From NCBI RefSeq assembly GCF_056746865.1, contig NZ_CM163382.1: DNA of 64,000 nucleotides; one strand, given 5' to 3'. Positions 13,111 to 35,040 of the stretch are shown piece after piece; within the stretch, counting starts at the first letter, position 1, and every line of letters starts with the position of its first letter. The notes under the pieces were generated by a model. It ran no database searches. It worked only from the letters and a program-made list of their open reading frames with translations, and was not told the DNA's origin. Made by a program: the position numbers and the translations under genes.

Positions 13111-14176
13111 CGGTTTATCCCCGCTGACGCGGGGAACACACATGAATGTCGGTTCAGACCGTGTTTTTACCCGGTTTATCCCCGCTGGCGCGGGGAACAC
13201 TGCCTCGGCGGCGGCTCTGCGCAACCGCGAAACGGTTTATCCCCGCTGGCGCGGGGAACACGTTAAACCGTGATGATCAGCAAAAGCTATTTCCGGTTTA
13301 TCTCCGCTGACGCGGGGAACACGTCAATAGGCGGCGTCCCGTAGCCGTCCCCTTCGGTTTATCCCCGCTGGCGCGGGGAACACTTGAAATGGTCCAGCAC
13401 TGCGACCGTCGGCCCCGGTTTATCCCCGCTGGCGCGGGGAACACGCTGGTGGCGCGGGCAAACGGAACAATCCCGCCGGTTTATCCCCGCTGGCGCGGGG
13501 AACACGCTAACCTATAACACGGAAAATCACACGCTAACGGTTTATCCCCGCTGGCGCGGGGAACACGGCCATTCCCCCAAGCAGACGCAGGAAGTTAACG
13601 GTTTATCCCCGCTGGCGCGGGGAACACCTGGATTTCACCTCAGCAAATGCTGGATGTGGCGGTTTATCCCCGCTGGCGCGGGGAACACCACCCCTGATAT
13701 TTTTGCCACCGTGGTTACTCCGGTTTATCCCCGCTGGCGCGGGGAACACAGAAATCAAACTCAGCGTGCAAATGGGGTAGCCGGTTTATCCCCGCTGGCG
13801 CGGGGAACACTTGCGTTATTTCTATCTGGTGAGTCGCGGCACCGGTTTATCCCCGCTGGCGCGGGGAACACGTATTTTTTATCGTCGCATGAGTCGCGGT
13901 AACCGGTTTATCCCCGCTGGCGCGGGGAACACTTCTGCCGCGCCAGCAAACGTATCGGCGGTCACGGTTTATCCCCGCTGGCGCGGGGAACACCCCAGGC
14001 CAAGCATTATATCCTGTGCGTCGTTCGGTTTATCCCCGCTGGCGCGGGGAACACACCAAGAAGCTGACGAATCAGCCCGACACGCACGGTTTATCCCCGC
14101 TGGCGCGGGGAACACCCAGTTTCATATGAGCCGCCGCGCTGGATCATCGGTTTATCCCCGCTGGCGCGGGGAACAC
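13111..14176 (-). CRISPR. Type I-E CRISPR array: 18 repeats of 29 bp (CGGTTTATCCCCGCTGGCGCGGGGAACAC on + strand), 17 spacers of 32 bp; leader at high-coordinate end
   Basis: Regular 61-bp periodicity read directly. Repeats at 13111 and 13294 carry variants (GCTGACGCG; 13294 also ATCTCC). A degenerate terminal repeat lies at about 13050-13078. Confidence 0.97.
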
Positions 14177-15486: not shown

Positions 15487-16133
15487 GCCTCTGCTCCGGG
15501 TTTGATCAGCATCAGACCACAGCCGAACGCGCGGCTTTTGCCATACCCCTGGCTCAGACGTTGCAGAAATAACCCGGGATCGGTGACCGTAAGCATCCCC
15601 GTATAATCCACGCTACTGAACTGGATCAGTTGCCGGGAGTTTTCCCGCCACAGTTGCTGTTGTCGGTAGGCATCAACCGAGGTATCCAGCAGTGTAAAAC
15701 CGCTTCTCTCCCCCTGCGCTGCCAGCCAGTCCAGCGCCGCCTGTTGTTGATGCAACCAGACATCACTTCCTTCCGCCTGCCCCCTCACCTGCCGTTTCGC
15801 CTCCATCAGCAGATCGTGGCGCTTGCCCGCTTTACAGATTGTTGGATTCGCCCGCAGGTTGAAACAAAGTTGTTGTCCGGTACGCAGCTCGGGCACAAAT
15901 GACCGGCATTCGATGGTGAACGTTTCACTTTCTGCCGGGCGTTCCTGCGACAGTACAAAAAAGCGAAACGCGCCCTGGAGTTCTTCCCGACGATAAAGAA
16001 ATTGCCTTTCTTTGCCGCCAGGGAAGAGATCCCACAGCCACTGATGCATCACATATTCCCCGCGATCCACCAGATGCAGCAACTGCGCAGGCGAAAGCTG
16101 GCCGGTATGTAAGGTTATTCTTGAGAGGTACAT
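15483..16133 (-). CDS. cas6e: Cas6e/CasE crRNA endoribonuclease (divergent I-E variant)
   Basis: Start at MYLSRITLHTGQ (ATG 16131-16133, GGAGG upstream); C-terminal ...GYGKSRAFGCGLMLIKP glycine-rich motif typical of Cas6e. Confidence 0.88.
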
Positions 16134-16810
16134 GGTTCCTCCTTGCTGAGCCACGGCCCCTGATTGACGGTGCGTTCCCCAAACAACCATTGCTGACGAT
16201 TTAAAGGAACATCCCGGCGGCGCAATATTTTGCTCGCGACCAGGCCGTCGTGCTCCCCTTCCCACCAGCATTCATCCTGAAGTTTCGGGAGTGCGATTTT
16301 CAGGTCGTGGAAATGCTCCTGATACTGGTGATATGCGTTACGTAAAACATCAGACGCGTTGCCTTCAAGCAGTAACGGCGCAAGTGGTAATGCCAGCGGA
16401 TGACTTTTTCGCCCCAGATAAAGCGGAAAAACTGGATGGCGTAAACCGCCCTGCAACTGTTCGAGGCTGTAAGGCGCATCGGCTGTTGTTGCCACCGCCA
16501 CCATCCACCAGGCGTCGGTGTAGTAGTCGCGCCGGGAGATAATCGCGCTCAGAAGATCAGGGTCGCTCAACTCTTCGCGACGGCTGAAATAACGCGCTTT
16601 ACGCACCTCTTTTGGCATCTGGATTGTGTGATAATCCCGTGCCCAGCGCGGGTTACGGCTGGCGCAAACCACCAGTGAATAGTGGCGGTTAAACACGTTT
16701 AATCGTTCGGTATCATCACGCCGAATCCCTACCCCGGCAGCCAGCAGCCCCAGCAATGCTGAGCGCGAAGGCAGTTCATGGGTATGACGCACTTCGCCCG
16801 CTCCAAACAA
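16115..16810 (-). pseudogene. cas5: cas5e/casD remnant lacking about 20-25 N-terminal codons; fused to island att core
   Basis: Cas5e-like body (...LPSRSALLGLLAAGVGIRRDD..., ...LYLGRKSHPLALPL...) but the frame opens with only a TTG 3 codons after a stop, and the first codons overlap the 15-bp att repeat. Confidence 0.8.
16792..16806. repeat. att core direct repeat (left copy), CTTCGCCCGCTCCAA
   Basis: Identical 15-mer recurs at 36704-36718; matches the acceptor-stem/CCA end of a tRNA. Confidence 0.6.
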
Positions 16811-16969
16811 ACATTTCTCAACGTCTACTGAAGTCCATCAAATCCACGAATATCAAGCCTTTCAGCCATTTTCATAGCTTATTAACGTCTACTCACAACT
16901 ACCAGAATCTACACACAGAAGTGTATAGTAATGCGTATAGGACAAAATTTATTTTTTGGAGCTATACAC

Positions 16970-18184
16970 ATGCTGCTTTCAGACCTTGCTATCAGGCGCG
17001 CGAAGCCGAAAGAAAAGGCTTATACACTCAATGACGGTAACGGGCTTTCGTTACTCATTGAGCCGAACGGCTCGAAAGGGTGGCGACTACGTTACAGATT
17101 TGCAGGAAAGCCCAAAATGTTGTCGTTGGGCGTGTACCCTGATGTGTCTCTGTCTGATGCCAGAGCGGCAAGGGATGAGGCTAAAAGGCTTCTTGCTGGT
17201 GGTATAAATCCAAGTGAGGCCAGAAAAGCTCAAAAGCGAGAACAGGCGAGCAAATTTGGCAATACTTTTGAGGGTATCGCTCGCGAATGGTATGAAAAGC
17301 GGATCGACAGGTGGTCATCGTCATACGCCGAGGAAATGATCGAGACGTTTGAAAAAGACGTTTTTCCGTACATTGGCGGCAGGCCGATCGCAGAAATTAA
17401 GCCAATGGAGTTGCTTGCGGTTCTCTCCCGTCTTAATGACCGTGGGGCGACCGAAAAATTGCGTAAGGTTCGCCAGCGATGCGGCGAGGTGTTCCGGTAC
17501 GCAATCATCACCGGACGCGCTGAATATAACCCCGCACCAGATCTGGCAAGCGCATTTGCTCCACACAAAAAAGAGCATTATGCCTATTTGAAGGCCGACG
17601 AACTGCCGGAATTTTTCCGCGTTCTTAATACGTACACCGGAAGCCAGATCGTCAAGCTGGGTATGCGATTATTGATTCTGACAGGGCTCCGGCCAGGGGA
17701 ATTACGACAGGCAGAATGGCAGGAGATCGATTTTGATAATCGTTTGTGGGAAGTGCCTAAAGAACGAATGAAGATGCGCCGTCCTCATTGTGTGCCGCTT
17801 TCAGAACAGGCGATCGCTATTCTGGAACAGTTAAAACACATGACGGGGCAGTATCAGTTTATTTTCCCTGGTCGAATCCAGCACAGTAAGCCGATGAGTG
17901 AAATGGCGATGAACGTGCTTATTCGTCGTATTGGCTATTCTGGGCGCGTTACTGGTCATGGGTTCCGGCACACGATGAGCACGATTTTACATGAGCAGGG
18001 CTATAACACCGCGTGGATAGAAACGCAGCTTGCACACGTTGATAAGAACTCAATTCGTGGCACGTACAATCATGCGCAATATCTGGACGGGCGGCGCGAG
18101 ATGCTCCAGTGGTACGCCGACTATATGGACTCACTGGAACAGGGCGGCAACGTGGTGCATGGCAAGTTCGGAAAATGTGGATGA
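16970..18184 (+). CDS. int: Tyrosine recombinase, P4-type integrase
   Basis: ORF 16931..18184; start taken at MLLSDLAIRRAKPKEKAYTLNDGNGLSLLIEPNGSKGWRLRY... (ATG 16970); C-terminal catalytic region with HGFRHT and Y. Confidence 0.93.
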   Translation: MLLSDLAIRRAKPKEKAYTLNDGNGLSLLIEPNGSKGWRLRYRFAGKPKMLSLGVYPDVSLSDARAARDEAKRLLAGGINPSEARKAQKREQASKFGNTFEGIAREWYEKRIDRWSSSYAEEMIETFEKDVFPYIGGRPIAEIKPMELLAVLSRLNDRGATEKLRKVRQRCGEVFRYAIITGRAEYNPAPDLASAFAPHKKEHYAYLKADELPEFFRVLNTYTGSQIVKLGMRLLILTGLRPGELRQAEWQEIDFDNRLWEVPKERMKMRRPHCVPLSEQAIAILEQLKHMTGQYQFIFPGRIQHSKPMSEMAMNVLIRRIGYSGRVTGHGFRHTMSTILHEQGYNTAWIETQLAHVDKNSIRGTYNHAQYLDGRREMLQWYADYMDSLEQGGNVVHGKFGKCG

Positions 18185-19337: not shown

Positions 19338-19535
19338 ATGTCAAATACGCTTATTCGTTTAACAGAAGTTCAGCGTAGAACTGGATATAGCAAGGCATGG
19401 ATTTATCGCCTTATGGGGCAAGGTAAATTTCCTGCATCAGTTAAAATTGGCTCGCGAGCGATTGCTTTCGTTGAAAGTGAAATTGACGAATGGATCAATC
19501 AGCGTATTGCCGAATCACGCGGAACGGCTGCCTGA
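19338..19535 (+). CDS. alpA: AlpA-family phage transcriptional regulator/excisionase
   Basis: 65 aa MSNTLIRLTEVQRRTGYSKAWIYRLMGQGKFPASVKIGSRAIAFVESEIDEWI, classic AlpA HTH. Confidence 0.85.
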   Translation: MSNTLIRLTEVQRRTGYSKAWIYRLMGQGKFPASVKIGSRAIAFVESEIDEWINQRIAESRGTAA

Positions 19536-21606: not shown

Positions 21607-21810
21607 TGGTACACCTCACTTAAATGGATTTGATGGGCGCACACAATACAGCAAAAAAAGTGAGAAGTTAAGTATTGACATGTGCGCACACATGATTTTA
21701 ATCTGTGCGCAAGTTTGGGTTGCATTGCTCAAATTAAGCAACGCCCCGCAGTGCTCGCAACACATGCAGGGCGTCTAACCACCAACGATAGAAAGCGTAT
21801 CGAGGTAGCT

Positions 21811-22014
21811 ATGTTAAATCATACCACACACCCGCAAGGGCGGGACTCGCACAACCTGAATAAATACATCTGGCGTTTTATCGCCCTGAGCACCGCACAA
21901 CCACGCGTAATACACATCGAGGCCGCCAGCGAACAGGAAGCCCGTCAGCAATCCCCGGCTGGCTGCGTGATGGTATTTACTGCCCGCATCCGTCAGGGGG
22001 AATACTATGCGTGA
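21811..22014 (+). CDS. Small hypothetical island protein (67 aa)
   Basis: ATG 21811 after GAGG; MLNHTTHPQGRDSHNLNKYIWRFIALSTAQ... Confidence 0.4.
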   Translation: MLNHTTHPQGRDSHNLNKYIWRFIALSTAQPRVIHIEAASEQEARQQSPAGCVMVFTARIRQGEYYA

Positions 22015-22264
22015 TGAACGATTTATTCTTCTGGAGCAAAAATTCAGTGAAGCGCCAAAAAATGAAATTGATGCTCTTTTGCATATCGCGAATATGCTAA
22101 AAGTAGCAACGTTCCTTATAGTTTCGAATCTGGAGCATGAAACGGCGTTAGATATACTGAACAGTGCTGTCGATTATTCTGAATATATTGCCGAGGATAA
22201 ATACAGGCAATTACCAGATTTGTTAGCCCATAAATATAAAGAAGAACCTCACACCGGGAAATAA
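22007..22264 (+). CDS. Hypothetical protein (85 aa)
   Basis: ORF in operon-like series upstream of primase gene. Confidence 0.45.
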   Translation: MRDERFILLEQKFSEAPKNEIDALLHIANMLKVATFLIVSNLEHETALDILNSAVDYSEYIAEDKYRQLPDLLAHKYKEEPHTGK

Positions 22265-22266
22265 AC

Positions 22267-22569
22267 ATGAAGAAGATTAAATTTACTGGCTTAAATGCCA
22301 GCGGACAGACTCACCCGAAAATCAGGATCGGGGATATTTTCCGGGATAAATATGGTGACAGCGTGGTTATTAATTCCGTGTATGAACGGCACATTACATA
22401 CCGCCGCGCAGGGTACGACTATGACTGTGTGATGCCCGTTCATCAGTTCCGGCGTGATTTTTCACTGGTATGTGCAGCACCACGCAGTAAGCCCACCAGT
22501 AAAGAGAAAGCACGGGCAAATATTCAGGTAATAAAGAACATGATTAACGCATTCAGGGGCAAGAAATGA
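22267..22569 (+). CDS. Hypothetical protein (100 aa)
   Basis: ORF overlapping primase start; tight spacing with neighbours. Confidence 0.45.
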   Translation: MKKIKFTGLNASGQTHPKIRIGDIFRDKYGDSVVINSVYERHITYRRAGYDYDCVMPVHQFRRDFSLVCAAPRSKPTSKEKARANIQVIKNMINAFRGKK

Positions 22570-24692
22570 AACGCGCACCGAATTTAAAGCACCAGCCGAA
22601 AGACAAAATGACGGAGGTGATTATCTTTGCGGGTAGTGATGCCTGGGCACATGCGAAAGAGTGGAGCGAATGGGCCGGAAAGCATATTGCGGCAGATGAT
22701 ACACATCCAGTTATTCTTGGACCGGAACAACTGGCGAGTCTGGCAGACACGCAAATCATCGACAAAGGGCGCTATTACGTGCGCGTTTATCGTGCTGGTG
22801 AAATATCAGAGCAGCACCTTACACAGATAGCGACACTGCTTGCAGTGGCGGGTGTGAAGGAGGCGCGTTGCTACCGCAGCTTTGTTGATCAGCAGCCGGA
22901 GGACTGGACACCGCGCATGGCTGGACTGAAGGATGATGCGGAACGCGGTAACAGTCTGGTGATCAACCTTCCGGCGAAGACAAATTTCACCGGAAATTAT
23001 GATGACGAATTAAAGCCTCGTGTTGAAAGTCGCGTCGATGGTGTTTTCTGGGTAACGCCCAAAGTGGACAAGCAGTCAGGCGAAATTATCCGGCCTGAGA
23101 CGTGGTTATGTTCTCCGCTTGAACTACTGGGAACAGGAACAATCGGCAAAGAGCATTACCGCGTGATGCGCTGGAAAAAACCAGCAAACCATGAGGTCAT
23201 TACAATGGCGGTCCCGTGCGGAGGCATTGGTGACCGTGACGGCTGGCGGTTGCTGAAAGACCACGGCCTTAACGTGACGACCAACGGCAAATACAGGGCT
23301 ATCTTGGCTGACTGGATGCAGTTAAGCGGAAACCATGAGGAATGGCAGTTAAGCACAACAACGGGGTGGCATTTTGGTGCGTACATCATGCCGGATGGTT
23401 CGATCATCGGTGAATCAGAGAAACCCATCCTGTTTACCGGAAAAACTGCCGCTGTTAATGGCTATTCCGTGGCGGGAACAGCGGAGGGCTGGCGCGATAC
23501 CGTGGCACGGCTGGCTGGTGGTAATCCGTCCATGATGCTGGGTGTGGCGGTATCGCTATCTGCACCATTAATCGGGCTGGTGGGTGCTGACGGCTTCGGG
23601 GTTCATCTTTTTGAGCAATCATCAGCAGGTAAAACCACCACACAGAACATTGCATCAAGTTTATGGGGAGAGCCGGACGCGCAACGGCTGACCTGGTACG
23701 GAACGGCGTTAGGTATCGCCAACGAGGCCGAAGCACATAATGACGGGCTGTTACCCCTGGATGAAATAGGCCAGGCCGGAAACGCACGGGAGGTGTCCAC
23801 GTCAGCCTATACGCTGTTTAACGGTTCCGGGAAATTACAGGGGGCGAAGGACGGCGGCAACAGGGAGATAAAACACTGGCGTACGGTGGCAATCAGCACC
23901 GGAGAAATGGACGTTGAAACATTCCTCAAAACGGAAGGGATAAAAATTAAAGCGGGACAGCTTGTCCGTCTGCTTAACGTACCGATGGAAAAGGCCTCGC
24001 AGTTTCACGAATACAGCACCGGAAAGGCGCACGCAGACGCGTTAAAAGATGCCTGGACAGAAAATCACGGGGCGGCAGGTCGTGAGTGGGTTAAATGGCT
24101 GGCAGGCCACCAGCAGGAGGCAAAGGACGCGGTAAGGGCATGTCGCGAGCGGTGGCGCAACCTGATACCGGAGAGCTACGGCGAGCAGGTTCACCGTGTG
24201 GGGGAAAGATTCGCCGTACTGGAGGCCGCGCTTGTGCTTTCCGGTCATGTTACAGGCTGGGATGTTCAGGCGTGCCGTGATGCAGTTCAGCATAACTTTA
24301 ATGCCTGGGTGAAGGAATTCGGCACGGGCAACAGGGAATTTAAACAGATGGTTGAACAGGCTGAGGCGTTTTTGTCGTCGTTCGGGTTCAGTCGATACCT
24401 TCCCTATCCAAACAGCGACGAGCGTGATTTACCGATTAAAGACCTTGCCGGATACAGAAAGGGGAGTATCAGAAACGAAGATGACGAGTTCCGTTTTTAC
24501 ACGTTCCCGCATGTGTTTGAGGGTGAGATAGCACAGGGATTTAATCCGTCTCACTTTGCCCGCGCGTTGAGTGCAGCCGGAATGCTGGAAGCGGGAGGCG
24601 ACCGCCGTTACAAGAAAAAGGCGCTCGGCAGGATTGGCGGGAAGCAACATATTTTTTACGTGCTGATGTTCCAGCCTGAAGCAGAAGATTAA
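22566..24692 (+). CDS. Satellite/prophage replication protein, DUF927-type primase-helicase-like, Walker A present
   Basis: 708 aa; Walker A-like FEQSSAGKTT; immediately followed by iterons. Confidence 0.75.
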   Translation: MKRAPNLKHQPKDKMTEVIIFAGSDAWAHAKEWSEWAGKHIAADDTHPVILGPEQLASLADTQIIDKGRYYVRVYRAGEISEQHLTQIATLLAVAGVKEARCYRSFVDQQPEDWTPRMAGLKDDAERGNSLVINLPAKTNFTGNYDDELKPRVESRVDGVFWVTPKVDKQSGEIIRPETWLCSPLELLGTGTIGKEHYRVMRWKKPANHEVITMAVPCGGIGDRDGWRLLKDHGLNVTTNGKYRAILADWMQLSGNHEEWQLSTTTGWHFGAYIMPDGSIIGESEKPILFTGKTAAVNGYSVAGTAEGWRDTVARLAGGNPSMMLGVAVSLSAPLIGLVGADGFGVHLFEQSSAGKTTTQNIASSLWGEPDAQRLTWYGTALGIANEAEAHNDGLLPLDEIGQAGNAREVSTSAYTLFNGSGKLQGAKDGGNREIKHWRTVAISTGEMDVETFLKTEGIKIKAGQLVRLLNVPMEKASQFHEYSTGKAHADALKDAWTENHGAAGREWVKWLAGHQQEAKDAVRACRERWRNLIPESYGEQVHRVGERFAVLEAALVLSGHVTGWDVQACRDAVQHNFNAWVKEFGTGNREFKQMVEQAEAFLSSFGFSRYLPYPNSDERDLPIKDLAGYRKGSIRNEDDEFRFYTFPHVFEGEIAQGFNPSHFARALSAAGMLEAGGDRRYKKKALGRIGGKQHIFYVLMFQPEAED

Positions 24693-24715
24693 CTTCCCTG
24701 TGTGAGGTAAAAAGT

Positions 24716-24845
24716 TGCGGGTTATGCGGGTTATCCTGTGCATAAGTTAATTAACTGAATGATTAAAAAGGAAATTAATAACCCGCACGTAACCCGCAAA
24801 ACGGCAGTTATAACCCGCAAATGTGCGATTGTAACCCGCAAAATT
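24716..24845. repeat. Iteron cluster 1 (putative replication origin): convergent copies of TTGCGGGTTAT / ATAACCCGCAA
   Basis: gttgcgggttatgcgggttat then aataacccgcacgtaacccgcaaaacggcagttataacccgcaaatgtgcgattgtaacccgcaaa. Confidence 0.7.
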
Positions 24846-24902
24846 TCACTGTAAGAGTGTAAACAAGCGTAACTATCACGTTAAAACCGGAGAACAAACA
24901 GC

Positions 24903-25328
24903 ATGACGGCGCAAATATCAGCTTACGGGCGGCTGGTGGCTGACCCGCAGTTAAAGACCACCAGCAAGGGCACACAAATGGCGATGGCGAGTATGGCGGT
25001 CCCCCTTCCATGCAATCAGACAGATGACGGAACGGCGACGATGTGGTTATCCGTCCTGGCGTTTGGCAGACAGGCTGACGCACTGGCAAAACACCACAAA
25101 GGCGAACTGGTGAGCGTGGCCGGTAACATGCAGGTGAGCTGGTGGACGGGCCAGAACGGCGAAACGAGGCAGGGATGGCAGGTTATCGCAGACAGCGTAA
25201 TCAGTGCGCGAACGGCGCGACCGGGCGGCAAAAAAGGCCAGCAGGGGCAGGCTACTGATGCACTGAACAGGGCAAAGCAACAGACAGGCCAGCACGATGA
25301 TCCGTACGGGGACGGGATACCGTTTTAA
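24903..25328 (+). CDS. Single-stranded DNA-binding protein-like (OB-fold)
   Basis: 141 aa; pattern GRLVADPQLKTT...WLSVLAFGRQADALAKHHKGELVSVAGNMQVSWW...GETRQGWQV resembles SSB OB-fold core; Gly/Gln-rich tail ending DDPYGDGIPF like the SSB acidic tip. Confidence 0.55.
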   Translation: MTAQISAYGRLVADPQLKTTSKGTQMAMASMAVPLPCNQTDDGTATMWLSVLAFGRQADALAKHHKGELVSVAGNMQVSWWTGQNGETRQGWQVIADSVISARTARPGGKKGQQGQATDALNRAKQQTGQHDDPYGDGIPF

Positions 25329-25411
25329 TTCACAACAGCGAACAGAGTAATTACCCAGTGCGCCGTAAAGCCCCGTCCTTCAGGTCGGGGATATAAGGCG
25401 CGGTTTTCCAC

Positions 25412-25828
25412 CTAACTAGGTGTTTGCTGTTGTTCAATGTATTGGCGGATGATGGATATTGGCGCACCTCCGCAGCTACTGGCAAAATAGCTGGGACTCC
25501 ATAAAACGCCTTTGTAGTAATACCTGACTGCAATATCTGGTCGATCTCGTCGCAATAATCTACTCGATACGCCCTTGAGACTGTTCACCAGGGTGGATAT
25601 CGCCAATTTGGGAGGATAGTTAATTAGCAGGTGAACGTGATCTCGTTCTCCATCCATTTCAACCAGTTCAGCTTCAAAATCAGCACATACACTTGAAAAG
25701 TAAGTGCGTAGTTTTTCTATTGCGTCATGGTCAAAAATCTGGCGTCGGTACTTGGTAACAAAGACCAGGTGAACGTGCATCAGGAAGACACAGTGCCTTC
25801 CACGTCGGATATCGGTTTCTTTTTTCAT
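25412..25828 (-). CDS. tnpA: IS200/IS605 Y1 transposase TnpA
   Basis: Start at MKKETDIRRGRHCVFLMHVHLVFVTKYRR; HuH motifs HVHLV and DHVHLL; ends ...GGAPISIIRQYIEQQ. Confidence 0.88.
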   Translation of the reverse strand: MKKETDIRRGRHCVFLMHVHLVFVTKYRRQIFDHDAIEKLRTYFSSVCADFEAELVEMDGERDHVHLLINYPPKLAISTLVNSLKGVSSRLLRRDRPDIAVRYYYKGVLWSPSYFASSCGGAPISIIRQYIEQQQTPS

Positions 25829-25850
25829 AGGCCAAAGTATAATTTGGCAT

Positions 25851-27059
25851 ATGAAACGACTACAAGCTTTCAAATTCCAGTTAAGACCAAATGGAAAACA
25901 GGAGCGTGAAATGAGGCGCTTCGCGGGCGCATGTCGTTTCGTTTTCAATCGTGCTCTGGCGCTTCAGAATGAGAATCATGAGGCCGGGAACAAATATATT
26001 TCTTATGCAAAGATGACTTCCTGGCTGGTTGAATGGAAAAATGCTACTGAAACGCAATGGCTTAAAGATTCTCCCTCACAGCCATTGCAGCAGTCACTGA
26101 AAGACCTTGAGCGAGCCTACAAAAATTTCTTTCAGAAGCGTGCCGCTTTTCCCCGATTCAAAAAGCGGGGACAGCATGATGCATTCCGCTATCCGCAGGG
26201 TGTTAAGCTCGATCAGGAAAACAGCCGTATTTTTCTGCCGAAACTGGGCTGGATGCGCTACCGGAACAGCCGTCAGGTCACGGGTGTTGTGAAAAATGTC
26301 ACTGTCAGCCAGTCCTGCGGTAAGTGGTACATCAGTATTCAGACAGAAAGTGAAGTATCAACTCCGGTTCACCCTTCAGCATTAATGGTCGGGCTGGATG
26401 CTGGCGTGGCTAAACTCGCCACGCTGTCAGATGGCACGGTCTTTGAGCCTGTAAACAGTTTTCATAAAAACCAGAAGAAGCTGGCGAGACTTCAGCGCCA
26501 GTTAAGCCGCAAGGTTAAATTCAGCAACAACTGGCAGAAGCAGAAACGCAAAATACAGCGACTGCATTCCCGTATCGCAAATATCCGCAGGGACTACCTT
26601 CACAAAGTCACAACGACCATCAGCAAAAACCACGCAATGATAGTCATTGAGGATTTGAAGGTCAGCAACATGTCAAAGTCAGCCTCGGGTACGGTCAGCC
26701 AGCCGGGGCGCAATGTCCGGGCAAAATCAGGTTTAAACCGTTCGATACTGGATCAGGGCTGGTATGAAATGCGCCGTCAGCTTGAGTACAAGCAGCTCTG
26801 GTGTGGCGGTCAGGTGCTTGCTGTTCCGCCAGCGTACACAAGCCAGCGTTGCGCGTGCTGTGGTCATACAGCGAAAGAAAATCGCCTGTCACAAAGTCAA
26901 TTCAGATGCCAGGTATGTGGATATACAGCGAACGCCGATGTAAACGGCGCTCGTAACATTTTAGCGGCGGGGCACGCCGTTCTTGCCTGTGGAGGGATGG
27001 TGCAGTCAGGCCGCCCGTTGAAGCAGGAACCCACCGAAATGATTCAGGCGACAGCCTGA
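25851..27059 (+). CDS. tnpB: TnpB (OrfB) RNA-guided nuclease-like protein
   Basis: 402 aa; [17 protein letters not shown]...; C-terminal CxxC...CxxC zinc finger ([37 protein letters not shown]). Confidence 0.9.
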
Positions 27060-27265
27060 ACGTAGCAGGAATCCACGTCCTTCAGGGCGTGGAGGATGTC
27101 AAATATCAATGCGACGACTGGAATGTTCCAGGAAGGCACAGAGGCCACCGAAGCAACCGGATAATTTAGAAGACCTGAAACGGTCGCTTAAACGCACTGA
27201 AAAAGAAATGGGGATAGATGGGATCGGGAAATCAGTATGGCGTAACTACCAGAAGTAAGCACAGA
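27060..27265 (+). ncRNA. Putative omegaRNA (reRNA) scaffold at tnpB 3' end / IS right end
   Basis: By analogy with IS200/IS605 TnpB systems; structured region ending in hairpin GCCGGAGCAATCCGGC plus T-run. Boundaries not determined. Confidence 0.35.
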
Positions 27266-27289
27266 GCCGGAGCAATCCGGCTTTTTTTT
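27266..27289 (+). terminator. Hairpin plus T8 tract at IS right end
   Basis: gccggagcaatccggc followed by tttttttt. Confidence 0.5.
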
Positions 27290-27389
27290 GGCTGAAATCA
27301 ATCAATCTGTTTTTGTGATAGAAATATATTTATCTACCACTTTTTTCGATCAATAATGTGCATAATTTAGTCATTAAGAGGAAATTGCT

Positions 27390-27596
27390 GTGAATTGTAT
27401 TAACGACCTGAACACAGGCGATGTCAGAGGTGGTTCCGTTCATCTGGATGCACAGACCGTGATGCGCCTTAAGCAGTACAGAATCGACCATGTGAACAAT
27501 CACCCTGATCAGCCATTACCAGGCGTGGCGCAGATTGTCAGACATGCCGTAAACGCCTGGCTTAATCAGAATGGTTTTGCATCGGGGGGTGAGTAA
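27390..27596 (+). CDS. Small protein (68 aa), first gene of the novel operon; possible regulator
   Basis: GTG start 27390 preceded by AAGAGG; no recognisable family. Confidence 0.45.
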   Translation: MNCINDLNTGDVRGGSVHLDAQTVMRLKQYRIDHVNNHPDQPLPGVAQIVRHAVNAWLNQNGFASGGE

Positions 27597-27692
27597 TGAA
27601 TCGCTGGTACAGCATCAAAGCAGAGGGACGCCAATGTTATCTAACTCAGGTTTTATGAATTCTGACTCCCGATTCAAAATAGGAGGTTACTA

Positions 27693-30224
27693 ATGCCAGT
27701 CGTACCAACAGTATCCGGACGTCAGGTTGAGAGCCGTGGAGTTCAGTCAGCAGGCTTGCAGACGTTTTCTCAGCCAGGTATTGGTGATGCTTTTGTTCGG
27801 GCAGGGGCAGAGGCAATTGATGTTTTTGGTCAGGCAAAACAGCGTGCCAATATTGCCTTGATTCAGGAGGCATCCCTTAAACTCAGTCAGATAGGCAGTG
27901 ATCTGCTGAATAATCCTGAAACAGGATTGCTTAACCTGAAAGGGAAAAATGCTATTGGAAAAGGCCATGAGTATACACAGCAGTTTGATGCTCAGATCGA
28001 ACAACTGGCTATGTCGCTGCCGGATGAACAGGCTCGTAATGCTTTCATGCAGCAGGCGCAGCAGCAGCGTATTCAGTTCGCTACGCAGGCCGGGAGGTAC
28101 GAGATAGGGCAAATAAATGCCTACGAAGAAGGCCAGTTTCAGGCGACACTGCTGAATAATGGTAAAAATGCCTCAGCATTATATGGCGACAACGCAGCAT
28201 ACATATTGGCTAATACGCAAACTTTCCAGCAAATTGAGGATTACGGTATTGCGCATGGCTGGAGCGACGAGCAAATCCAGGCCAAGAAAATCGAGTTTAA
28301 AGAAGCAACAGCAAAAGCAACTGCTCAAAATGCTATTGGAGCAAACTATCTTCAGGTAAGACAGCAAAATGGCGAGTTAAGCGATACTGCTGCTGGATCT
28401 CGCCGTGCTGTAGCAGATAGTGGCTCTTCCGATCGTACCCGCGGTATACGCAACAATAACCCCGGCAATCTTGAATACAGCAAAACTAATCCGTGGATTG
28501 GGCAGACTGGTGATGATGGTCGCTTTGCCAAATTCGAAACCCCTGAACACGGTATTCGCGCGCTTGGTCGCAATTTGCTGTCGTATCAGCGTCAGGGTTA
28601 TGACACCATCAGCGAAATAATTAATCGCTGGGCACCGGCCAGTGATGATAATAAAACTGATGCTTATATACGGGCAGTATGTGCTCAGCTCGGTGTAACT
28701 CCTGACCAGCCGCTTGACGCATCAAATCCTGACACACTGAAATCTCTGTGCAAAGCAATTATTCATCATGAGCAAGGCAGTCAGCCGTACAGTGATCAGC
28801 AATTGGCCGCTGGCGTTAGTGCCGCACTGGGGCTTTCTCAGCTACCGACAAAAAATAAACGTTATACCGGTGTAGCCTGGTTCGATGCTTTAAGTGAATC
28901 AGATCAGGCCAGCGTGTTGCGACAGACGGATGCATTAGCCAGACAGCAGCAGGCTGAATATAGAACGATGCTCGAAAGCCGGGTTCGCGATGCAACGGCT
29001 GCGTATATGCGTGGCGTTGAATTTCCTAACCCGCCTGGTGAGGGTGAGTTCATTGCTGCTTATGGTGTCAGAGAAGGAAACCTGCGATATACCGAGTTCA
29101 GAAATTTGCAGATCGCCGGACAGTATATAGGCTCTTTCCGCAACATGCCGACAAGCAGCATTACCGCATATGTTGAGCAATTACGCCCGGATACTGGTGA
29201 GACAGGGGAGGGGTATGCGTCTCGTGCGGAGTTATTCGACCGGGTATCGGCGGCAGCCACGAAGGTAATAACCCAGAGGCAGAATAATCCGTTTAGTGCA
29301 GCGGTGGAAATCGGAGCCTATAAGCCGATCACCAGCAACAACCCTGACGACATCACTGCCGAGGTGGCTAACCGTTTCTCGTCGCAGGAAAGCTTACGCG
29401 CGTTGGGAATTAATGCCCCACTCCTCAACAGTGAAGAGGCGGCTGCGCTGGCACAGCAGGTGCGCGGCACTCAGAACGTTGACCAGACAATTAAACTGTT
29501 GCAGAGCATGGGGGAGAAGCTGCCTGCGCCAGCAATACGGCAGGTGGCATCTGTAATTGCTCCGAACAGTGCGGCAACAGCCTATTCTGCGCTGCTGCTG
29601 GGCACGCCGGATAACCAGTACGACAACACCAGGCCGACGATCCCATATAGTCAGTTCATCGGGTATAAGCCGACGATGAACAAGTACGACGTTGCAAAGG
29701 TTATTCTTTCCGGCGACCAACTACTGAATCCGACGAAGGCCATGAAGAATGCGGGCATAACTCCGGTACAGTTGCCGAGCGAAGATAAGATGAAAGACGC
29801 TTTCGACGAACAGGTAGGTAATGCATTTGCCCGTAACCCGCAGTTACGCCAGATCAGTTATAGCCTTTTCAAAGCCGCTTACGCAGGAATAGCTTATCAA
29901 TCTGGTGATGCCTCTACGGTAAGAACCAGTATGCCTGATACAGACATTGTAGCTGATGCCGTGAAGTATGCTACTGGCGGTATATACAATGGTTTTAATG
30001 GCGGCGACGTTGTAATGCCTTTTGGCATGGATAAATCTACTTTCAAAGATCGCTATACCACATCTGCGAAACAAGCACTGAAAGATGCCGGACTTAACGT
30101 AAATGCAGTGTCAAATTTCACGCCAGTTAATATCGGCAATAACCGGTATCGGCTTGTAAATGGTAGCGGACGCTGGGCAACAGATCCCAGAACCAATAAA
30201 GCTATTGTCGTGAGGGTTGAATAA
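27693..30224 (+). CDS. Large hypothetical protein P1 (843 aa), Q/A-rich, conserved-looking block RNNNPGNLEY...
   Basis: Strong RBS AGGAGG before ATG 27693; stop overlaps next start (TAATG). Confidence 0.8.
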   Translation: MPVVPTVSGRQVESRGVQSAGLQTFSQPGIGDAFVRAGAEAIDVFGQAKQRANIALIQEASLKLSQIGSDLLNNPETGLLNLKGKNAIGKGHEYTQQFDAQIEQLAMSLPDEQARNAFMQQAQQQRIQFATQAGRYEIGQINAYEEGQFQATLLNNGKNASALYGDNAAYILANTQTFQQIEDYGIAHGWSDEQIQAKKIEFKEATAKATAQNAIGANYLQVRQQNGELSDTAAGSRRAVADSGSSDRTRGIRNNNPGNLEYSKTNPWIGQTGDDGRFAKFETPEHGIRALGRNLLSYQRQGYDTISEIINRWAPASDDNKTDAYIRAVCAQLGVTPDQPLDASNPDTLKSLCKAIIHHEQGSQPYSDQQLAAGVSAALGLSQLPTKNKRYTGVAWFDALSESDQASVLRQTDALARQQQAEYRTMLESRVRDATAAYMRGVEFPNPPGEGEFIAAYGVREGNLRYTEFRNLQIAGQYIGSFRNMPTSSITAYVEQLRPDTGETGEGYASRAELFDRVSAAATKVITQRQNNPFSAAVEIGAYKPITSNNPDDITAEVANRFSSQESLRALGINAPLLNSEEAAALAQQVRGTQNVDQTIKLLQSMGEKLPAPAIRQVASVIAPNSAATAYSALLLGTPDNQYDNTRPTIPYSQFIGYKPTMNKYDVAKVILSGDQLLNPTKAMKNAGITPVQLPSEDKMKDAFDEQVGNAFARNPQLRQISYSLFKAAYAGIAYQSGDASTVRTSMPDTDIVADAVKYATGGIYNGFNGGDVVMPFGMDKSTFKDRYTTSAKQALKDAGLNVNAVSNFTPVNIGNNRYRLVNGSGRWATDPRTNKAIVVRVE

Positions 30225-32284
30225 TGTCTGATGTTTTTTCTTTGGCTCCAGAAGGTCAGGCATGGATTGACGACAAAACAGTTGCCAACCCAGCAAGGCC
30301 AGAAGACTACGATCCGACTCCCTTCCAGGGTTCAGGTACTGCACTTTTGAGCGGCGTGGCGGAGGGGGCTCTCGGTCTCGCGCAGTCTGCCGTCGGATTC
30401 AGCAAGCGTCTGATTAGCGATCCGGCATTTACCGCAGACGTGGCACCGACAGTTAATATTTTTCGGGAGATGTTCCCTGATGCTGACAAAACACTGAATG
30501 ATACATACGACACGATCGGAAAACAGTTACAGGATGCCCGCAGCTATGTGAAGCCTGATGCAGGCAGCCAGGGAATGGCGGCTGAGGTATTAAATGAGCT
30601 TGGTAAATTTGTTCCTGCAATCGGAACAACTATGTTTGGTGGTCCGCTCATCGGCGCTGCTACAGCCTTCAGTTCTACGTATGAGCAGTCCTATCAGGAT
30701 TTTAAAGGGAAGGGAGTAGACGAGGCTACAGCGCGTAACCTGGCAACGCAGCAGAGCCTTTTCAATGCTGTGGGTATGGCCTTACCCGCTGCCGTCGGCA
30801 CCACACTGGCAACGCGCATTGCCTCAGGTGTGGCAATCAACACCGGATTCGGTGGACTGAACCGTTACTCAGTAGGCGCAACACTGGAGGAAAAAGGCTA
30901 CACGGAGATGGCAAAACAGTATCGGGTATTTGACGGTCAGGCGATGTTAGTCGATGCCGTTTTAGGCGGGGTCTTTGGTGGCGTTCATCACCTGACTACC
31001 CATAATAACCATGATGGTACAGAGTCGAACATTTCTGCAGAAGAAATAAAATCAACTTTTGGTGAACATTATCAGCAATCTCCTGATGGTAACATTGAGT
31101 CAATGGTTCGTGATTTATCTGATTCAGGAGTAATAGAACTTATTAATGAACCAGCAATAAAAAATAGTGATGGAGAAATACTTCTGAATAAAGGTCATGT
31201 GACAGTAGCTTCCGGAAAAGAACCAATAATAAGAATAAATATTAATGGATTAAAAGACCATGAAGAACTGTTAGAAACCCTTCATCACGAGGCGCTTCAT
31301 CTTGAGCAGCGCCATTACCCTGACTGGAAGGCCAGAAAGCTAGCTAATGCTGTACTTAAATCTGCAAACAAGCATTCTGACTATCCTGAATTTGCATATG
31401 GGATGTCACAATATTATGAATATAAGAAAAGGGGTGAGTACCCTGAAACATATCCTGAGTGGTTGTACGCTGAAGAAGTTGCCGCACATGCAGTAAATCC
31501 ATCTCTAAAGACAAGCGTTTCATCATGGGAAAAAATTATTTCAGGTTTTAAAGCCTATATATTCAGATACAGTGGTATTCAGGTTGGAACCGTTACACCT
31601 GAGCAGTTACGGTTACTCGTAAGTATGCGTCTTCGCAATATGAAACTGGAAGCCGCAGTAGAAAAAGTTTTTGGTATCCGGGCGAGGGAAAGAATAAAAC
31701 CAAGCGATATTGATGCAGCCCACATTTTGAATGAGGGGCTTCATTACGATATTGAATCGTCACCAGTGCTTCATACCAGCAATGAGAGCATCAACAGCCA
31801 TGTTGACGCCATGGATGAAGCATACAGGCAACTTAATGATGGTCAGCCTGTAAATGTTGGGGGGATGGCGCGAGGGCTTGATGGTCCATTGCGATCAGAT
31901 ATATCTGATACTTACCAAGAGCAATACCATGAAATACAAAAGGTTTTTGAAGAAAATGGTGTCAGATACGAAACATCATCAGAGCCAATTAGTGAATCGC
32001 CTGTCCCTCGTGCTGAAAGTGCTTTCTCATCGGCTGGTGAACACAGAGGGGACATCAGCGTTGATCCAGATACAGGGCAGGTTCTCTCATCCAACAGCTA
32101 TGACCTTATGGCTGCCAGGGACATGGCTGTTGCCAATCCTGAGCTGACTATAGCTCACCCGGAAACCGGAAACCCGACAAAACTTTCTGATCTCCTGGCT
32201 GAGTTGGATGAACAGATTAAGACAGTCCAGAACGAATCGAAGGTTTATTCTGTAGCAGCAGCGTGCTTCTTGAGGAACCCATAA
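30224..32284 (+). CDS. Large hypothetical protein P2 (686 aa) with glycine-rich hydrophobic segments and an HExxH motif
   Basis: HEALH at nt 31286-31300; N-terminal third has repeated Gly/Ala-rich hydrophobic stretches; TAATG coupling at both ends. Confidence 0.8.
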   Translation: MSDVFSLAPEGQAWIDDKTVANPARPEDYDPTPFQGSGTALLSGVAEGALGLAQSAVGFSKRLISDPAFTADVAPTVNIFREMFPDADKTLNDTYDTIGKQLQDARSYVKPDAGSQGMAAEVLNELGKFVPAIGTTMFGGPLIGAATAFSSTYEQSYQDFKGKGVDEATARNLATQQSLFNAVGMALPAAVGTTLATRIASGVAINTGFGGLNRYSVGATLEEKGYTEMAKQYRVFDGQAMLVDAVLGGVFGGVHHLTTHNNHDGTESNISAEEIKSTFGEHYQQSPDGNIESMVRDLSDSGVIELINEPAIKNSDGEILLNKGHVTVASGKEPIIRININGLKDHEELLETLHHEALHLEQRHYPDWKARKLANAVLKSANKHSDYPEFAYGMSQYYEYKKRGEYPETYPEWLYAEEVAAHAVNPSLKTSVSSWEKIISGFKAYIFRYSGIQVGTVTPEQLRLLVSMRLRNMKLEAAVEKVFGIRARERIKPSDIDAAHILNEGLHYDIESSPVLHTSNESINSHVDAMDEAYRQLNDGQPVNVGGMARGLDGPLRSDISDTYQEQYHEIQKVFEENGVRYETSSEPISESPVPRAESAFSSAGEHRGDISVDPDTGQVLSSNSYDLMAARDMAVANPELTIAHPETGNPTKLSDLLAELDEQIKTVQNESKVYSVAAACFLRNP

Positions 32285-35040
32285 TGAAACAGGCATGTGT
32301 GGAAGCTATTGCGCAGACACTTGGTCGCCAGCCAAAGGCTGATGAGCTGAAAAATATTGAAGATCGTATCAAAGAAGCTGTGCAGCATGTGCACAGAAAG
32401 AATGCCAAAGAAGGCAAAAGTGGTATTCCTGATGCTCAAACATACATGGATGCAGCAGAACTGGTACGCCAGCGTGTGGTTCATGATGTGTACAAGAAAA
32501 GACAGCGTGTTGCCCAGAATGCGATCGCCATCAGTAAAATTACTGACACTCTCGATGCTAACATCCCGCCTGATCAGCAGACACCTGTTAATTTGCAGCA
32601 GTTTATTTTTGCTGGCCGACGATCGAGAGACAAAGCTGATATCTCCGTTACTTCTGCTGAAGAACTTGCAATTGGGGCATATCAGGACTGGTCCCGTCAG
32701 CTCAGTGCTGAACTTCTAAAAGCAGGTGATGACGTCCGCAAATTCTTCGAGCAGAGCAGGGCGCTTGGAGAGCAGCGGTTTCGGAGTGTATTCGACAGGC
32801 AGGCGGCAAAGTCTGCACAACTCCAGATCCTGAAAGAAATATATGGCGAAGATACCGGGAATCCCCTGGCGAAGAAAATTGCACAGATTTGGAAGGATGT
32901 AACAGGCCGTGTTCGTCATGAGATGAACGACAATGGCTTTGACATAGGCCTGCGAGAAGACTGGCATACGCCATATGTGGATGATGCTGACCTTATTCGC
33001 AATGCCGGGCGCGAAGAATGGCTGGCATCGTTACCAGTGGCAGAGCAAGCTACAGCACGTCTTTCAGGTCGCCAGCCACCGATTGAGTTTGCCCGCCAGA
33101 AATGGGTTGATGACGCTTACAACACGCAGGATCGCAGCAATTACGTTAATCCTGACGGCAGCATTATGAATGACGTCGAGTACCGTCAGGCACTGGAAGC
33201 GATCTTTGAAACGAAGGCCACTGATGGGGCAAACAAAATTGAGCCTGGTACATTTATGGGAGCCGGAGGAATAAAGAGCCGTGGTTCTCAGCACAGGGTG
33301 ATGGCGTTCAAGGATGCGCAGTCACACTTCGCCTATATGGAACGATACACTCAGCAGCCGCTGGTGGGGGTGATGATGTCGCACCTGCAATCATCATCCA
33401 GGGATTTGGGCGTCGTTAAAGCCTTTGGTCCGGACGCCGAAAGAAACTTTTCCCTGGTACTGGATCGCATCTATAAGCGCGCAGTAACAGGCGGGAAACG
33501 CAAAAAAGAAATGGAGGATGAGGCCAAATTAGTTGCCCGTATGTTCAACTCAATGGCTGGCCTAAATGGTGTCGCTTCATCGAGTGTGTTCTCTTCAGCA
33601 GTTGGTGGTCTGCGTAACCTGATGACCAGCGCCATGCTTGGCACCAGCGTACTGACAGCAACCAGCGACCAGGCAATTATGCGGGCAAATGCGCAGGCGC
33701 TGGGCTTTACCCGTGGTGGAATGCGGCTTTCCGTTAACACTATCAAAAACCTGTTTAGTGGAGATGCCAAAAAGGCGAATGCTGAACTCGGTCTGCTGGT
33801 GGATTCACATGCTGCTGTGGTTTCGAAAATGGGCGGGTTTGACTTGTCTCGCGGCATAACTGGCTGGTTCGCAGAGAAGACACTGAAGTGGTCCGGGCTG
33901 ATCGCTATGGACCGCGCAAACAAAGCGTCGTTTGGTCTCCTGATGTACAAAAACATTGGCGAGCTGACCAGAAAATTTAAGACGCTGGACGATATGAAAG
34001 GAACCGATAAAACCATTCTGGCTAACAAGGGATGGAGCAATGAGGACTGGGCCATCATGGCAGCGGCAGAACTCAGGCCGATGACTACTGCCGGGCATAT
34101 GGGGATGACGCCAGACGCGATTTACGCTGTGCCCGATAACGTAATAGCCGACATTATGGCAGACCGTATTACCCGGATTCGTGCCGGGAGTGAAAAGGCA
34201 CTGGCAGCCCTTGGAGATCTCCCTCCAGAACGCCTGAAACGGATGAAAGAAGCATTCGACGCTGAGGCTGAGCAGACCATCACGCGCATGATTCGTAATG
34301 CACGCGCTGAAGCAGCCCAGAAATTGCTGGGAATTACGCACGGTGAGATGACCAATGCTGTGACCACCGCTACGGGTATTGATACATATGCCCGTGATGA
34401 TGCTGGCGAGTTAATGAAGAGCTTCATGCTCTTCAAAACAACCCCATTTGCTGGATTTCGGCAACTTGTTAACAGAACACGGGATTTGGACACCGTTCCG
34501 GCCATTAAATTTCTGGCCTCATATATCGGGGGAACAACTCTTGCTGGTATGTTTGCGATCCAGATGAACAGTTTGTTAAATGGTAATGATCCGCTGGATA
34601 TGACAAAACCAACCACATGGGTTCAGGCTTTACTGAAAGGTGGTTCGTTCGGTATCTACGGTGATTTTATTTTCCAGGACCATACGCAATATGGCTCCAG
34701 CATCGGTGCCACTATGGGTGGCCCTGTGTTGAGCTTTGCAGAGCAGTTAACAAAATTACTGATTACTAACCCACAGAAGGCTCTACAGGGTGAAGAAACA
34801 TCATTCGGTGCCGATGCACTGAAAACAGCCCGCATGATCACCCCATTCGCAAACCTGTGGTATGCGAAAGCGATAACCAATCACCTGATATTGCAACAAC
34901 TTCAGGAGATGGCAAACCCTGGTTACAATGATCGAGTAAGGGACCGCGCGCAACGGGAGTTCGACATAACGAGTTGGTGGGAACCGGGTGCTATTGCGCC
35001 ACGTAGAGCACCGGATTTTGGAAAGGCGGTGGGGAACTGA
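32284..35040 (+). CDS. Large hypothetical protein P3 (918 aa)
   Basis: ORF 32263..35040; start taken at MKQACVEAIAQ (ATG 32284 overlapping P2 stop); Gly-rich hydrophobic segments toward C-terminus. Confidence 0.8.
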   Translation: MKQACVEAIAQTLGRQPKADELKNIEDRIKEAVQHVHRKNAKEGKSGIPDAQTYMDAAELVRQRVVHDVYKKRQRVAQNAIAISKITDTLDANIPPDQQTPVNLQQFIFAGRRSRDKADISVTSAEELAIGAYQDWSRQLSAELLKAGDDVRKFFEQSRALGEQRFRSVFDRQAAKSAQLQILKEIYGEDTGNPLAKKIAQIWKDVTGRVRHEMNDNGFDIGLREDWHTPYVDDADLIRNAGREEWLASLPVAEQATARLSGRQPPIEFARQKWVDDAYNTQDRSNYVNPDGSIMNDVEYRQALEAIFETKATDGANKIEPGTFMGAGGIKSRGSQHRVMAFKDAQSHFAYMERYTQQPLVGVMMSHLQSSSRDLGVVKAFGPDAERNFSLVLDRIYKRAVTGGKRKKEMEDEAKLVARMFNSMAGLNGVASSSVFSSAVGGLRNLMTSAMLGTSVLTATSDQAIMRANAQALGFTRGGMRLSVNTIKNLFSGDAKKANAELGLLVDSHAAVVSKMGGFDLSRGITGWFAEKTLKWSGLIAMDRANKASFGLLMYKNIGELTRKFKTLDDMKGTDKTILANKGWSNEDWAIMAAAELRPMTTAGHMGMTPDAIYAVPDNVIADIMADRITRIRAGSEKALAALGDLPPERLKRMKEAFDAEAEQTITRMIRNARAEAAQKLLGITHGEMTNAVTTATGIDTYARDDAGELMKSFMLFKTTPFAGFRQLVNRTRDLDTVPAIKFLASYIGGTTLAGMFAIQMNSLLNGNDPLDMTKPTTWVQALLKGGSFGIYGDFIFQDHTQYGSSIGATMGGPVLSFAEQLTKLLITNPQKALQGEETSFGADALKTARMITPFANLWYAKAITNHLILQQLQEMANPGYNDRVRDRAQREFDITSWWEPGAIAPRRAPDFGKAVGN

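Follow-up and report, generated by a model that had tools for sequence, protein, structure and literature searches.

In this study, we analysed a 64-kb stretch (64,000 nucleotides; hereafter, the window) of an Escherichia coli chromosome (NCBI RefSeq assembly GCF_056746865.1, contig NZ_CM163382.1), which carries a single 19.9-kb island holding two clusters of the same short repeat, or iteron. We propose, with a probability of roughly 60%, that the two clusters are mirror-image modules of one replication origin, which is contiguous in many relatives and split in this island, and that the distal module (c2) acts in replication with the initiator encoded beside the proximal module (c1). The case for a replicative role of c2 rests on its conservation and on its covariation with the initiator.

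Two mirror-image iteron modules in one island

The 8-mer GCGGGTTA occurs 15 times in the window against 1.46 expected, a count reached by none of 100 shuffles, and 11 of these copies, along with one further degenerate copy, fall in the two clusters. The preliminary description of this DNA had placed the clusters at 24716-24845 and 36055-36212, which is right to within a few bases. The iteron family in cluster 1 reads T(T/A/G)GCGGGTTA(T/C). Longer words are largely confined to the clusters, with all five exact window copies of the 11-mer TTGCGGGTTAT and 11 of the 12 copies of the 9-mer TGCGGGTTA lying inside them; neither word has a single copy across the ~44 kb of chromosome that flanks the island within the window.

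The proximal module c1 (24715-24841) begins 23 bp past the stop codon (24690-24692) of the gene for a 708-residue DUF927 protein and consists of a tight pair of forward iterons (24715-24734, 9-bp spacing), an AT-rich spacer of 43 bp (24735-24777; 74% AT vs 51.5% for the island) and an array of four reverse iterons (24778-24841) spaced by 11, 21 and 21 bp. The distal module c2 (36058-36213) sits 11.3 kb downstream of c1 and 490 bp inside the right attachment site (attR), in agreement with the earlier placement of cluster 2 near the right end of the island. It consists of a helically phased array of three forward iterons (36058-36110, 21-bp spacing), a 75-bp spacer (36111-36185; 72% AT against the same island average) and a tight triple of reverse iterons (36186-36213, 8-9-bp spacing), one of them degenerate. 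Both clusters are thus convergent around an AT-rich spacer. However, c1 aligns better to the reverse complement of c2 than to c2 itself, and the phased 21-bp arrays then match in register, so that c2 is the mirror image of c1: c1 runs tight-AT-phased and c2 phased-AT-tight. The same iterons and the convergent arrangement had been recognised in the preliminary description, but its "second copy" is better described as a mirror-image second half, which adjoins the first in many relatives, including E. coli O157:H7. In a comparison of 29 distinct c2 variants, conservation reached at least 90% in the iterons and in the right half of the spacer, with the left half being variable.

Two potential host-factor sites lie in the spacers, and both are tentative. 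A DnaA-box-like sequence TGTGCATAA (24737-24745, minus strand; its complement matches TTATNCACA) is found in the c1 spacer of the window and in all E. coli c1 modules of the GCGGGTTA type examined. As a general part of the origin, the DnaA box TGTGNATAA was dropped because neither E. albertii nor any of the other iteron groups has it. A sequence resembling the consensus for integration host factor (IHF), CAACATATTGATA (YAANNNNTTGATW; 36142-36154, minus strand), lies in the conserved half of the c2 spacer and is exact in four E. coli-type c2 modules checked by eye (the window and the loci L003, L088 and L091), with one mismatch in L004; in other lineages such matches are scattered and are expected by chance in AT-rich DNA, and the site was not retained as a conserved part.

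A scan with the sigma-70 consensus returned no promoter in c2 and one weak antisense match beside c1 that is not meaningfully above chance, and an Rfam scan found no RNA family at or near either cluster. The first of these results bears on the idea that c2 is a promoter or operator through which the initiator regulates downstream genes. In contiguous loci and in some split ones, c2 with its conserved TATATATAC box does stand directly before a ribosome-binding site and a gene, as an operator would. In the window, however, only a cohesive-end site (cos) and attR lie downstream of c2, and the lack of a promoter match weighs against this function, which we regard as highly improbable.

As a separate observation, the repeat GTAAGAC(A/G)G is present in two copies just upstream of the distal c2 in several split loci (L020, L024 and L036), and the window has a related sequence, CACTGTAAGAGTGTAAAC, after c1 (24850-24870). 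The repeat could be a trace of the ancestral centre of the origin, or else a site of recombination.

Contiguous and split origins in relatives

We surveyed 80 loci with DUF927 homologues from other Enterobacterales, scanning downstream of the gene for a locus-specific repeat; the sequence reached at most 10 kb downstream, 76 loci could be scored, and the class counts given here are our own tally of the survey table. At least 10 iterons are in use, for example, GTGGGTTA, ACGGGTTA, TGAACCAAC, GAGACAAC, GGGACAAC, TGAACCGAC, TGGGATAA, TGGGCTAA, TGACACACT and CTTGTCCCA. A contiguous two-module origin of 9-12 iterons in 250-350 bp, which has the form of a large imperfect palindrome, is found in about half of the scorable loci (~38 of 76), covering at least 10 iteron types. 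The modules stand apart in 11 of the 76, representing four iteron types and several genera, with gaps of 0.57-11.4 kb. In every one of these 11 split loci, the distal cluster bears the iteron of its own locus, in the same orientation as in the contiguous form. The other loci had c1 alone, a class weighed below, or were ambiguous.

The clearest split case outside E. coli is that of Cedecea davisae (L020), where all 12 exact copies of TGAACCAAC (0.14 expected) fall into two clusters of six, with spacings of 9, 9, 52, 11, 21 in the first and 21, 21, 52, 9, 9 in the second, a perfect mirror. Because no integrase lies between the halves in L020, in L036 or in the window, we treat the halves as belonging to one element.

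An origin of the GCGGGTTA type is present in 300 of 5,426 complete E. coli genomes, and 141 of these 300 have one location that matches the contiguous query over at least 80% of its length. Searching E. coli with the c2 region led to two kinds of context. In an island of O157:H7 (L004), a c2-like module lies within ~50 bp of a c1-like one, and the two form a single unit of ~310 bp directly after the DUF927 gene. In strain PSS-15 (L003), c1 follows the gene and c2, separated from it by 9.3 kb, occupies the right end of the island. E. coli 042 (L088; NC_017626.1, 2,236-2,251 kb) has a matched split of the same kind, with c1 (14023-14145 in locus coordinates) after the initiator gene and c2 (22161-22313) 8 kb off, at the right end. 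Contigs of IMG/VR that carry this c2 divide into eight contiguous and seven split cases, the latter with matching iterons. In strain GF4, a segment corresponding to 21744-36574 of the window, with both clusters, is associated with a different integrase and occupies another chromosomal site, between yicC and dinD. Cluster 2 therefore belongs to the mobile element; the alternative that had been envisaged, a separate degraded element contributing cluster 2, does not hold.

Two of the relatives are unusual in other ways. The island of E. coli 042 is a capsid-forming phage-inducible chromosomal island (PICI) that has inserted into a prophage, within its large terminase gene, and so has a helper-embedded configuration. 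Yersinia pekkanenii (L025) has three complete two-module origins ~4.6 kb apart, with an interrupted initiator match, which could be a tandem array or an assembly artefact.

Iterons change together with the C-terminus of the initiator

The most telling comparison is with E. albertii (L005), the initiator of which is 79% identical overall to that of the window. There, CTTGTCCCA replaces GCGGGTTA in register both at c1 and at the distal c2, whereas the surroundings (the 3' end of the gene, the TATATATACGAAAAATTGCATTCAGGAGGGGGGG box and the cos region) remain ~90% identical to the window. The difference between the two initiators is concentrated at the C-terminus: the helicase core is 92% identical (90-100% along its length), and the last ~105 residues only 35-42%, with 35% for the C-terminal domain. 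The converse is seen in L003 and L004, which share the iteron of the window and have C-termini 80-92% identical to it, although the first ~160 residues are 30-72% identical. For pairs of loci in the survey, the median C-terminal identity is 69% when the iteron type is the same and 43% when the types differ, and several pairs combine near-identical cores with different iterons and divergent C-termini.

The distal cluster thus tracks both the proximal cluster and the C-terminal domain of the initiator across four iteron types. Such a three-way link between C-terminus, c1 and c2 is what would be expected if one protein domain reads both arrays, and the C-terminal ~105 residues presumably recognise the 9-11-bp iteron TTGCGGGTTAT.

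The DUF927 initiator

The protein encoded next to c1 (22566-24692, plus strand; 708 aa) matches Pfam DUF927, at residues 169-436, and phrog_1139, which is labelled "DNA primase" in PHROGs. DUF927 is its only Pfam domain; a Walker A motif lies at about residue 353, and no primase domain was detected in the protein with Pfam. For this reason, the origin, which had been described as primase-linked, is better called initiator-helicase-linked; the tie between c1 and the DUF927 gene itself stands, and it matches the origin layout of PICIs in the accessible text of PMC6092414. The DUF927 core matches PDB 8tch ("pathogenicity island protein"; E 3e-16, residues 210-605) and PDB 5dgk, the Cch helicase of the staphylococcal cassette chromosome mec (SCCmec; E 8e-5), and the NCBIfam model for SCCmec Cch1 gives a weak match far below its cut-off. 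A BLASTP comparison with the alpha protein of phage P4 gave no detectable similarity (E 0.12). Based on these matches, the DUF927 protein is predicted to be a self-loading AAA+ initiator-helicase of the kind represented by Cch and by the Rep proteins of Staphylococcus aureus pathogenicity islands (SaPIs). An AlphaFold2 model built from a 15-sequence alignment has a mean predicted local distance difference test (pLDDT) score of 45, is confident only at residues ~10-125 and falls below 50 at residues 580-708.

Persistence, loss and mismatch of the distal module

Several observations weigh against a replicative role of c2, and the most serious of them is an element found on two IMG/VR contigs of a single genome (L091 and L121; UViG_2579778952), in which c2 does not match the resident initiator. 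It is a capsid-encoding island with a chimeric initiator of 604 aa: residues 137-599 are 49% identical to residues 313-776 of P4 alpha, and over its first 139 residues it resembles the DUF927 protein at the N-terminus (44% identity). Downstream of the initiator gene come about eleven P4 type-1 iterons, GGTGAACA, and yet the right end of the island retains an intact GCGGGTTA-type c2 with its cos; the features described here span 702-2745 and 11092-11238 of oriented L091. As judged from this arrangement, the element demonstrates swapping of modules between PICI-type and P4-type replication systems, as well as an N-terminal domain apparently shared by the two. It also follows that c2 can persist without a cognate initiator, or survive exchange of the replication module; in L091/L121, c2 would either have been orphaned recently or not depend strictly on a resident cognate protein.

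Other points on the same side concern loss, rearrangement and patchy conservation. In about 19 of the 76 scorable loci, c1 stands alone within the sequence at hand (up to 10 kb downstream). In PSS-15, the last iteron of c2 and its downstream box have been left right beside c1, which suggests duplication followed by partial loss and not simple insertion of cargo between the halves. In strain STEC388, c2 is gone through an IS1 deletion that also took cos and attR. Islands with c1 only were considered as proof that c2 is dispensable, and this argument was dropped; the one case inspected, STEC388, is a decayed island. Furthermore, neither the DnaA-box-like nor the IHF-like site is conserved beyond the E. 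coli group. Finally, the plasmid replication assay published for the PICI EcCICFT073, as far as the accessible text describes it, is silent on whether one module suffices (PMC6092414).

Owing to the mismatched element, the strongest rival to our proposal is that c2 is a non-functional relic, left by recombination between satellites or by duplication and partial deletion, and too young to have decayed. Along with L091/L121, the c2 remnant beside c1 in PSS-15, the deletion in STEC388, the many loci with c1 only and the high mosaicism of the islands all fit such a history. A relic would not, however, be expected to keep its iterons and one half of its spacer across 29 variants while the other half varies, nor to match the local c1 in four specificity groups from several genera. 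The replacement of iterons in register between unchanged flanks in E. albertii, and the relative orientation preserved in all split loci, are equally difficult to accommodate. We therefore consider a relic unlikely.

The distal module lies beside a cohesive-end site

In every lineage examined, c2 is followed by a conserved box, TGTTTTGTATATATATACGAAAAATTG (36214-36246 in the window, plus strand). Next to the box lies a region (36247-36329, plus strand) that matches the annotated cos of phage phiP27 at 84.5% identity and includes a putative 10-nt cohesive-end core, CGCCCGCCTC, at 36290-36299 (the phiP27 core is CGCCCGCCCC). The distance from c2 to the putative cut core is 77 bp in the window and the same in L003, L005 and L091. 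The arrangement of c2 and cos recurs in GF4, PSS-15 and E. albertii, and in E. coli 042 with a degenerate cos-like stretch. A comparison with the cos sequences of lambda and P2, made by eye, was dropped, the database match being to the phiP27 cos.

The proximity of c2 and cos raises the possibility that c2 is a packaging accessory, which bends or marks the DNA beside cos for the terminase of a helper. The constant 77-bp distance, the adjoining degenerate cos-like stretch in E. coli 042 and the IHF-consensus-like site in the conserved half of the c2 spacer are compatible with such a role. But phiP27 has no comparable array beside its own cos, c2 is not beside cos in the O157:H7 island or in other genera, and the iterons covary with the C-terminus of the initiator and not with any terminase. 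We find this explanation quite improbable.

The phiP27-type cos is present in an island without capsid or terminase genes. It suggests a helper akin to phiP27 or HK97, or possibly a capsid-forming PICI with a small terminase of the P27 family. Induction and packaging of the island by a helper phage are putative, and the cos region is the one indirect piece of evidence for them.

Comparison with known replication systems

In Gram-negative PICIs, the origin comes directly after the 3' end of the pri-rep gene (Fillol-Salom et al. 2018, PMC6092414, as far as its text was accessible), and a pri-ori fragment of EcCICFT073 drives plasmid replication. Judging from its anatomy, with iterons on either side of an AT-rich spacer and a position shortly after the initiator gene, c1 is an origin of this known type. 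The accessible text of the same study further shows that the island shares with EcCICFT073 and other Gram-negative PICIs the succession of integrase, AlpA, Bro/Ant-type and Icd-like proteins, initiator, origin, single-stranded DNA-binding protein (SSB) and captured late genes, as well as a cos site for packaging by a helper, which in our island is recognised from its sequence. The difference is that the published text, where accessible, gives one unit of iterons and AT-rich DNA, whereas the island has two mirror-image units, the second 11.3 kb off and beside cos. Neither the two-module architecture nor the split form with its distal half beside cos was found in the accessible parts of the literature on such origins.

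The SaPI Rep and SCCmec Cch systems have a homologous helicase core, an origin just downstream of the gene and inverted iterons around an AT-rich centre. SaPI Reps are self-loading and bind iterons on both sides of the AT-rich region with a C-terminal winged helix (PMC9371898). For these proteins, C-terminal recognition of iterons is thus documented, whereas for the DUF927 protein it is suggested by covariation. The island differs in its Gram-negative host, in the length of its iterons (9-11 bp vs 5-6 bp), in an extra N-terminal domain of ~140 aa in the initiator and in a bipartite origin that can be split.

The two clusters had been likened to the paired ori and crr sites of phage P4, for which we relied on the annotated P4 GenBank record. 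In that record, crr ("cis required region for replication") lies 46 bp 3' of the alpha gene and consists of two 120-bp repeats, each with a tight pair of type-1 iterons (9-bp spacing) and opposed copies around an A/T-rich stretch; ori, ~4.7 kb from crr, has six more of the same 8-bp type-1 repeats. The likeness of layout stands, as both systems have two separated cis-located arrays of one short iteron, of which one directly follows the initiator gene and the other is kilobases off. However, the gene-proximal site of P4 is crr, ori being the distal one, so that by position c1 of the island corresponds to crr and not to ori. Nor does membership in the P4 group follow: the DUF927 protein is unrelated in sequence to alpha, the island cos is of the phiP27 and not of the P2 type, and a PHROGs scan of the island open reading frames (ORFs) returned no homologues of sid, psu or delta. 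Because the initiator resembles SaPI Rep and Cch and not P4 alpha, the comparison with ori and crr is an analogy of layout only.

In the iteron plasmids P1 and F, a second array away from the origin (incA and incC, respectively) consists of direct repeats without an AT-rich melting region and acts negatively. By analogy, c2 might be a copy-control locus that titrates the initiator or handcuffs the origin, instead of helping initiation. An extra array of initiator-binding repeats outside the minimal origin is the hallmark of such loci, and covariation of iterons with the initiator would be required under copy control as well. Unlike incA and incC, c2 contains an AT-rich spacer of its own and mirrors c1 exactly, and in many relatives it abuts c1 within one symmetric unit. 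Moreover, PICI-type satellites are described, in the accessible text, as lacking a plasmid state and copy-control genes (PMC6092414). Copy control through c2 thus appears distinctly unlikely.

Boundaries and gene content of the island

The island is bounded by a 15-bp direct repeat, with the attL core CTTCGCCCGCTCCAA at 16792-16806 (plus strand), corresponding to the 3' end of a tRNA-Gly gene, and the attR core at 36704-36718 (plus strand); a 13-mer of the att sequence occurs twice in the window against 0.07 expected. The body of the tRNA-Gly gene is missing at attL, and an ARAGORN search of the window found no tRNA gene. In strain SCU-105, whose tRNA-Gly is intact, the same site is occupied by the same island, and homology between the two begins at position 16792.

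What lies to the left of attL is a gene for Cas5e (CasD; 16115-16810, minus strand) truncated at its 5' end, in place of tRNA-Gly; it is preceded by Cas6e, Cas1e and the iap-cysN region. Homology to Cas5e extends to 16798 and that to tRNA-Gly/attL starts at 16792, leaving a 7-bp overlap, CTTCGCC (16792-16798). Only one other of the 5,426 complete E. coli genomes, ETEC1747, has this junction, which looks like the product of a rearrangement, possibly mediated by the integrase, that joined the att core to a similar site in cas5e.

From left to right, the island encodes an integrase, an AlpA-like protein, Ant/BRO-type proteins, an Icd-like protein, a DUF4222 protein, the 708-aa DUF927 protein, an SSB, an element of the insertion sequence (IS) family IS200/IS605 and three virion proteins, with the main ORFs running on the plus strand. 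The tyrosine integrase (16931-18184, plus strand) belongs to phrog_1 (E 7e-79). Between the integrase and alpA genes lies an int-alpA RNA motif (Rfam RF02996; 18229-18296, plus strand), which scores 46.9 bits against a gathering score of 35.8. The AlpA-like excisionase or regulator (19338-19535, plus strand) matches phrog_2790 and phrog_66 (excisionase and transcriptional regulator), and the SSB (24903-25328, plus strand) matches TIGR00621 and phrog_44. The IS200/IS605-family insertion (25355-27102; TnpA at 25412-25948, minus strand; TnpB at 25851-27059, plus strand), which combines TnpA with the RNA-guided TnpB, stands where the islands of SCU-105 and GF4 have ~1 kb with genes for ProQ/FinO-like and PerC-like proteins, and its 1.75 kb are included in the 19.9 kb of the island.

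With its integrase at the left end, direct att repeats, alpA after int, a single direction of genes, the position of the origin and a size within ~10-20 kb, the island has, on sequence evidence, the layout of a Gram-negative PICI satellite. Comparisons of the window with GF4 and E. coli 042 show islands of this type to be highly mosaic.

The genes between the SSB/IS region and c2, formerly considered an unassigned operon, can be assigned. They encode three large virion proteins of 843, 686 and 925 aa (27693-35040, plus strand; phrog_992, phrog_1145 and phrog_684) that are ~89% identical to virion proteins of the Salmonella podophage epsilon15, from which kind of phage they originate; the 925-aa protein has 89% identity to an epsilon15 structural protein. 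They do lie between the two clusters, as reported. That the cargo is part of the element also stands, but it is the att repeats that place it there and not its bracketing by the clusters, which had been taken to suggest membership in the replicon. Among the island ORFs scanned, there are no capsid, terminase or lysis genes, and the only phage late genes are the three captured virion genes. The first of the three virion proteins has a region resembling lytic transglycosylases. In other split loci, too, the cargo between the halves includes phage virion genes, encoding a lytic tail/internal virion protein in L020 and a 1,136-aa tape measure protein in L036. Carriage of phage DNA-delivery proteins by satellites may thus be a pattern.

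Proposed course of replication and its implications

From the arrangement of these parts, we infer the following course of events. Excision would yield a circle of 19.9 kb, in which the block formed by c2, cos, attP and int lies 8.5 kb from c1 in one direction, with the SSB and cargo genes spanning 11.3 kb in the other. The initiator would bind c1 and c2 as hexamers, by way of its C-terminal domain, and open the AT-rich spacers. Pairing of the two modules would follow, with protein bridging a DNA loop in the way that the P4 record implies for ori and crr; alternatively, each module would fire as a separate start site. Replication would produce concatemers, which the terminase of a phiP27-like helper would cut at cos, close to c2.

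A bolder extension would hold that PICI origins in general are two mirror half-origins able to work up to 11 kb apart, through a bridged loop or paired starts, and that the gap between them is a favoured slot for captured DNA-delivery genes, which would be bracketed by start sites and amplified first after induction. We consider this extension unlikely.

PICI-type satellites are vehicles by which virulence and defence genes spread at high frequency, and which elements co-replicate is determined by their origins. If the origin truly consists of two separable halves, the relatives of this island would provide a natural series of gaps, from 0 to 11 kb, in which to study how a self-loading helicase-initiator is assembled at a distance, and cloned "pri-ori" fragments may hold just half of the natural origin. 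A simple rule, pairing the C-terminal ~105 residues of the initiator with the iteron, would predict the specificity of initiators for origins and the incompatibility of co-resident satellites. In addition, c1, c2, cos and att would serve as markers for the boundaries of satellites in genomes.

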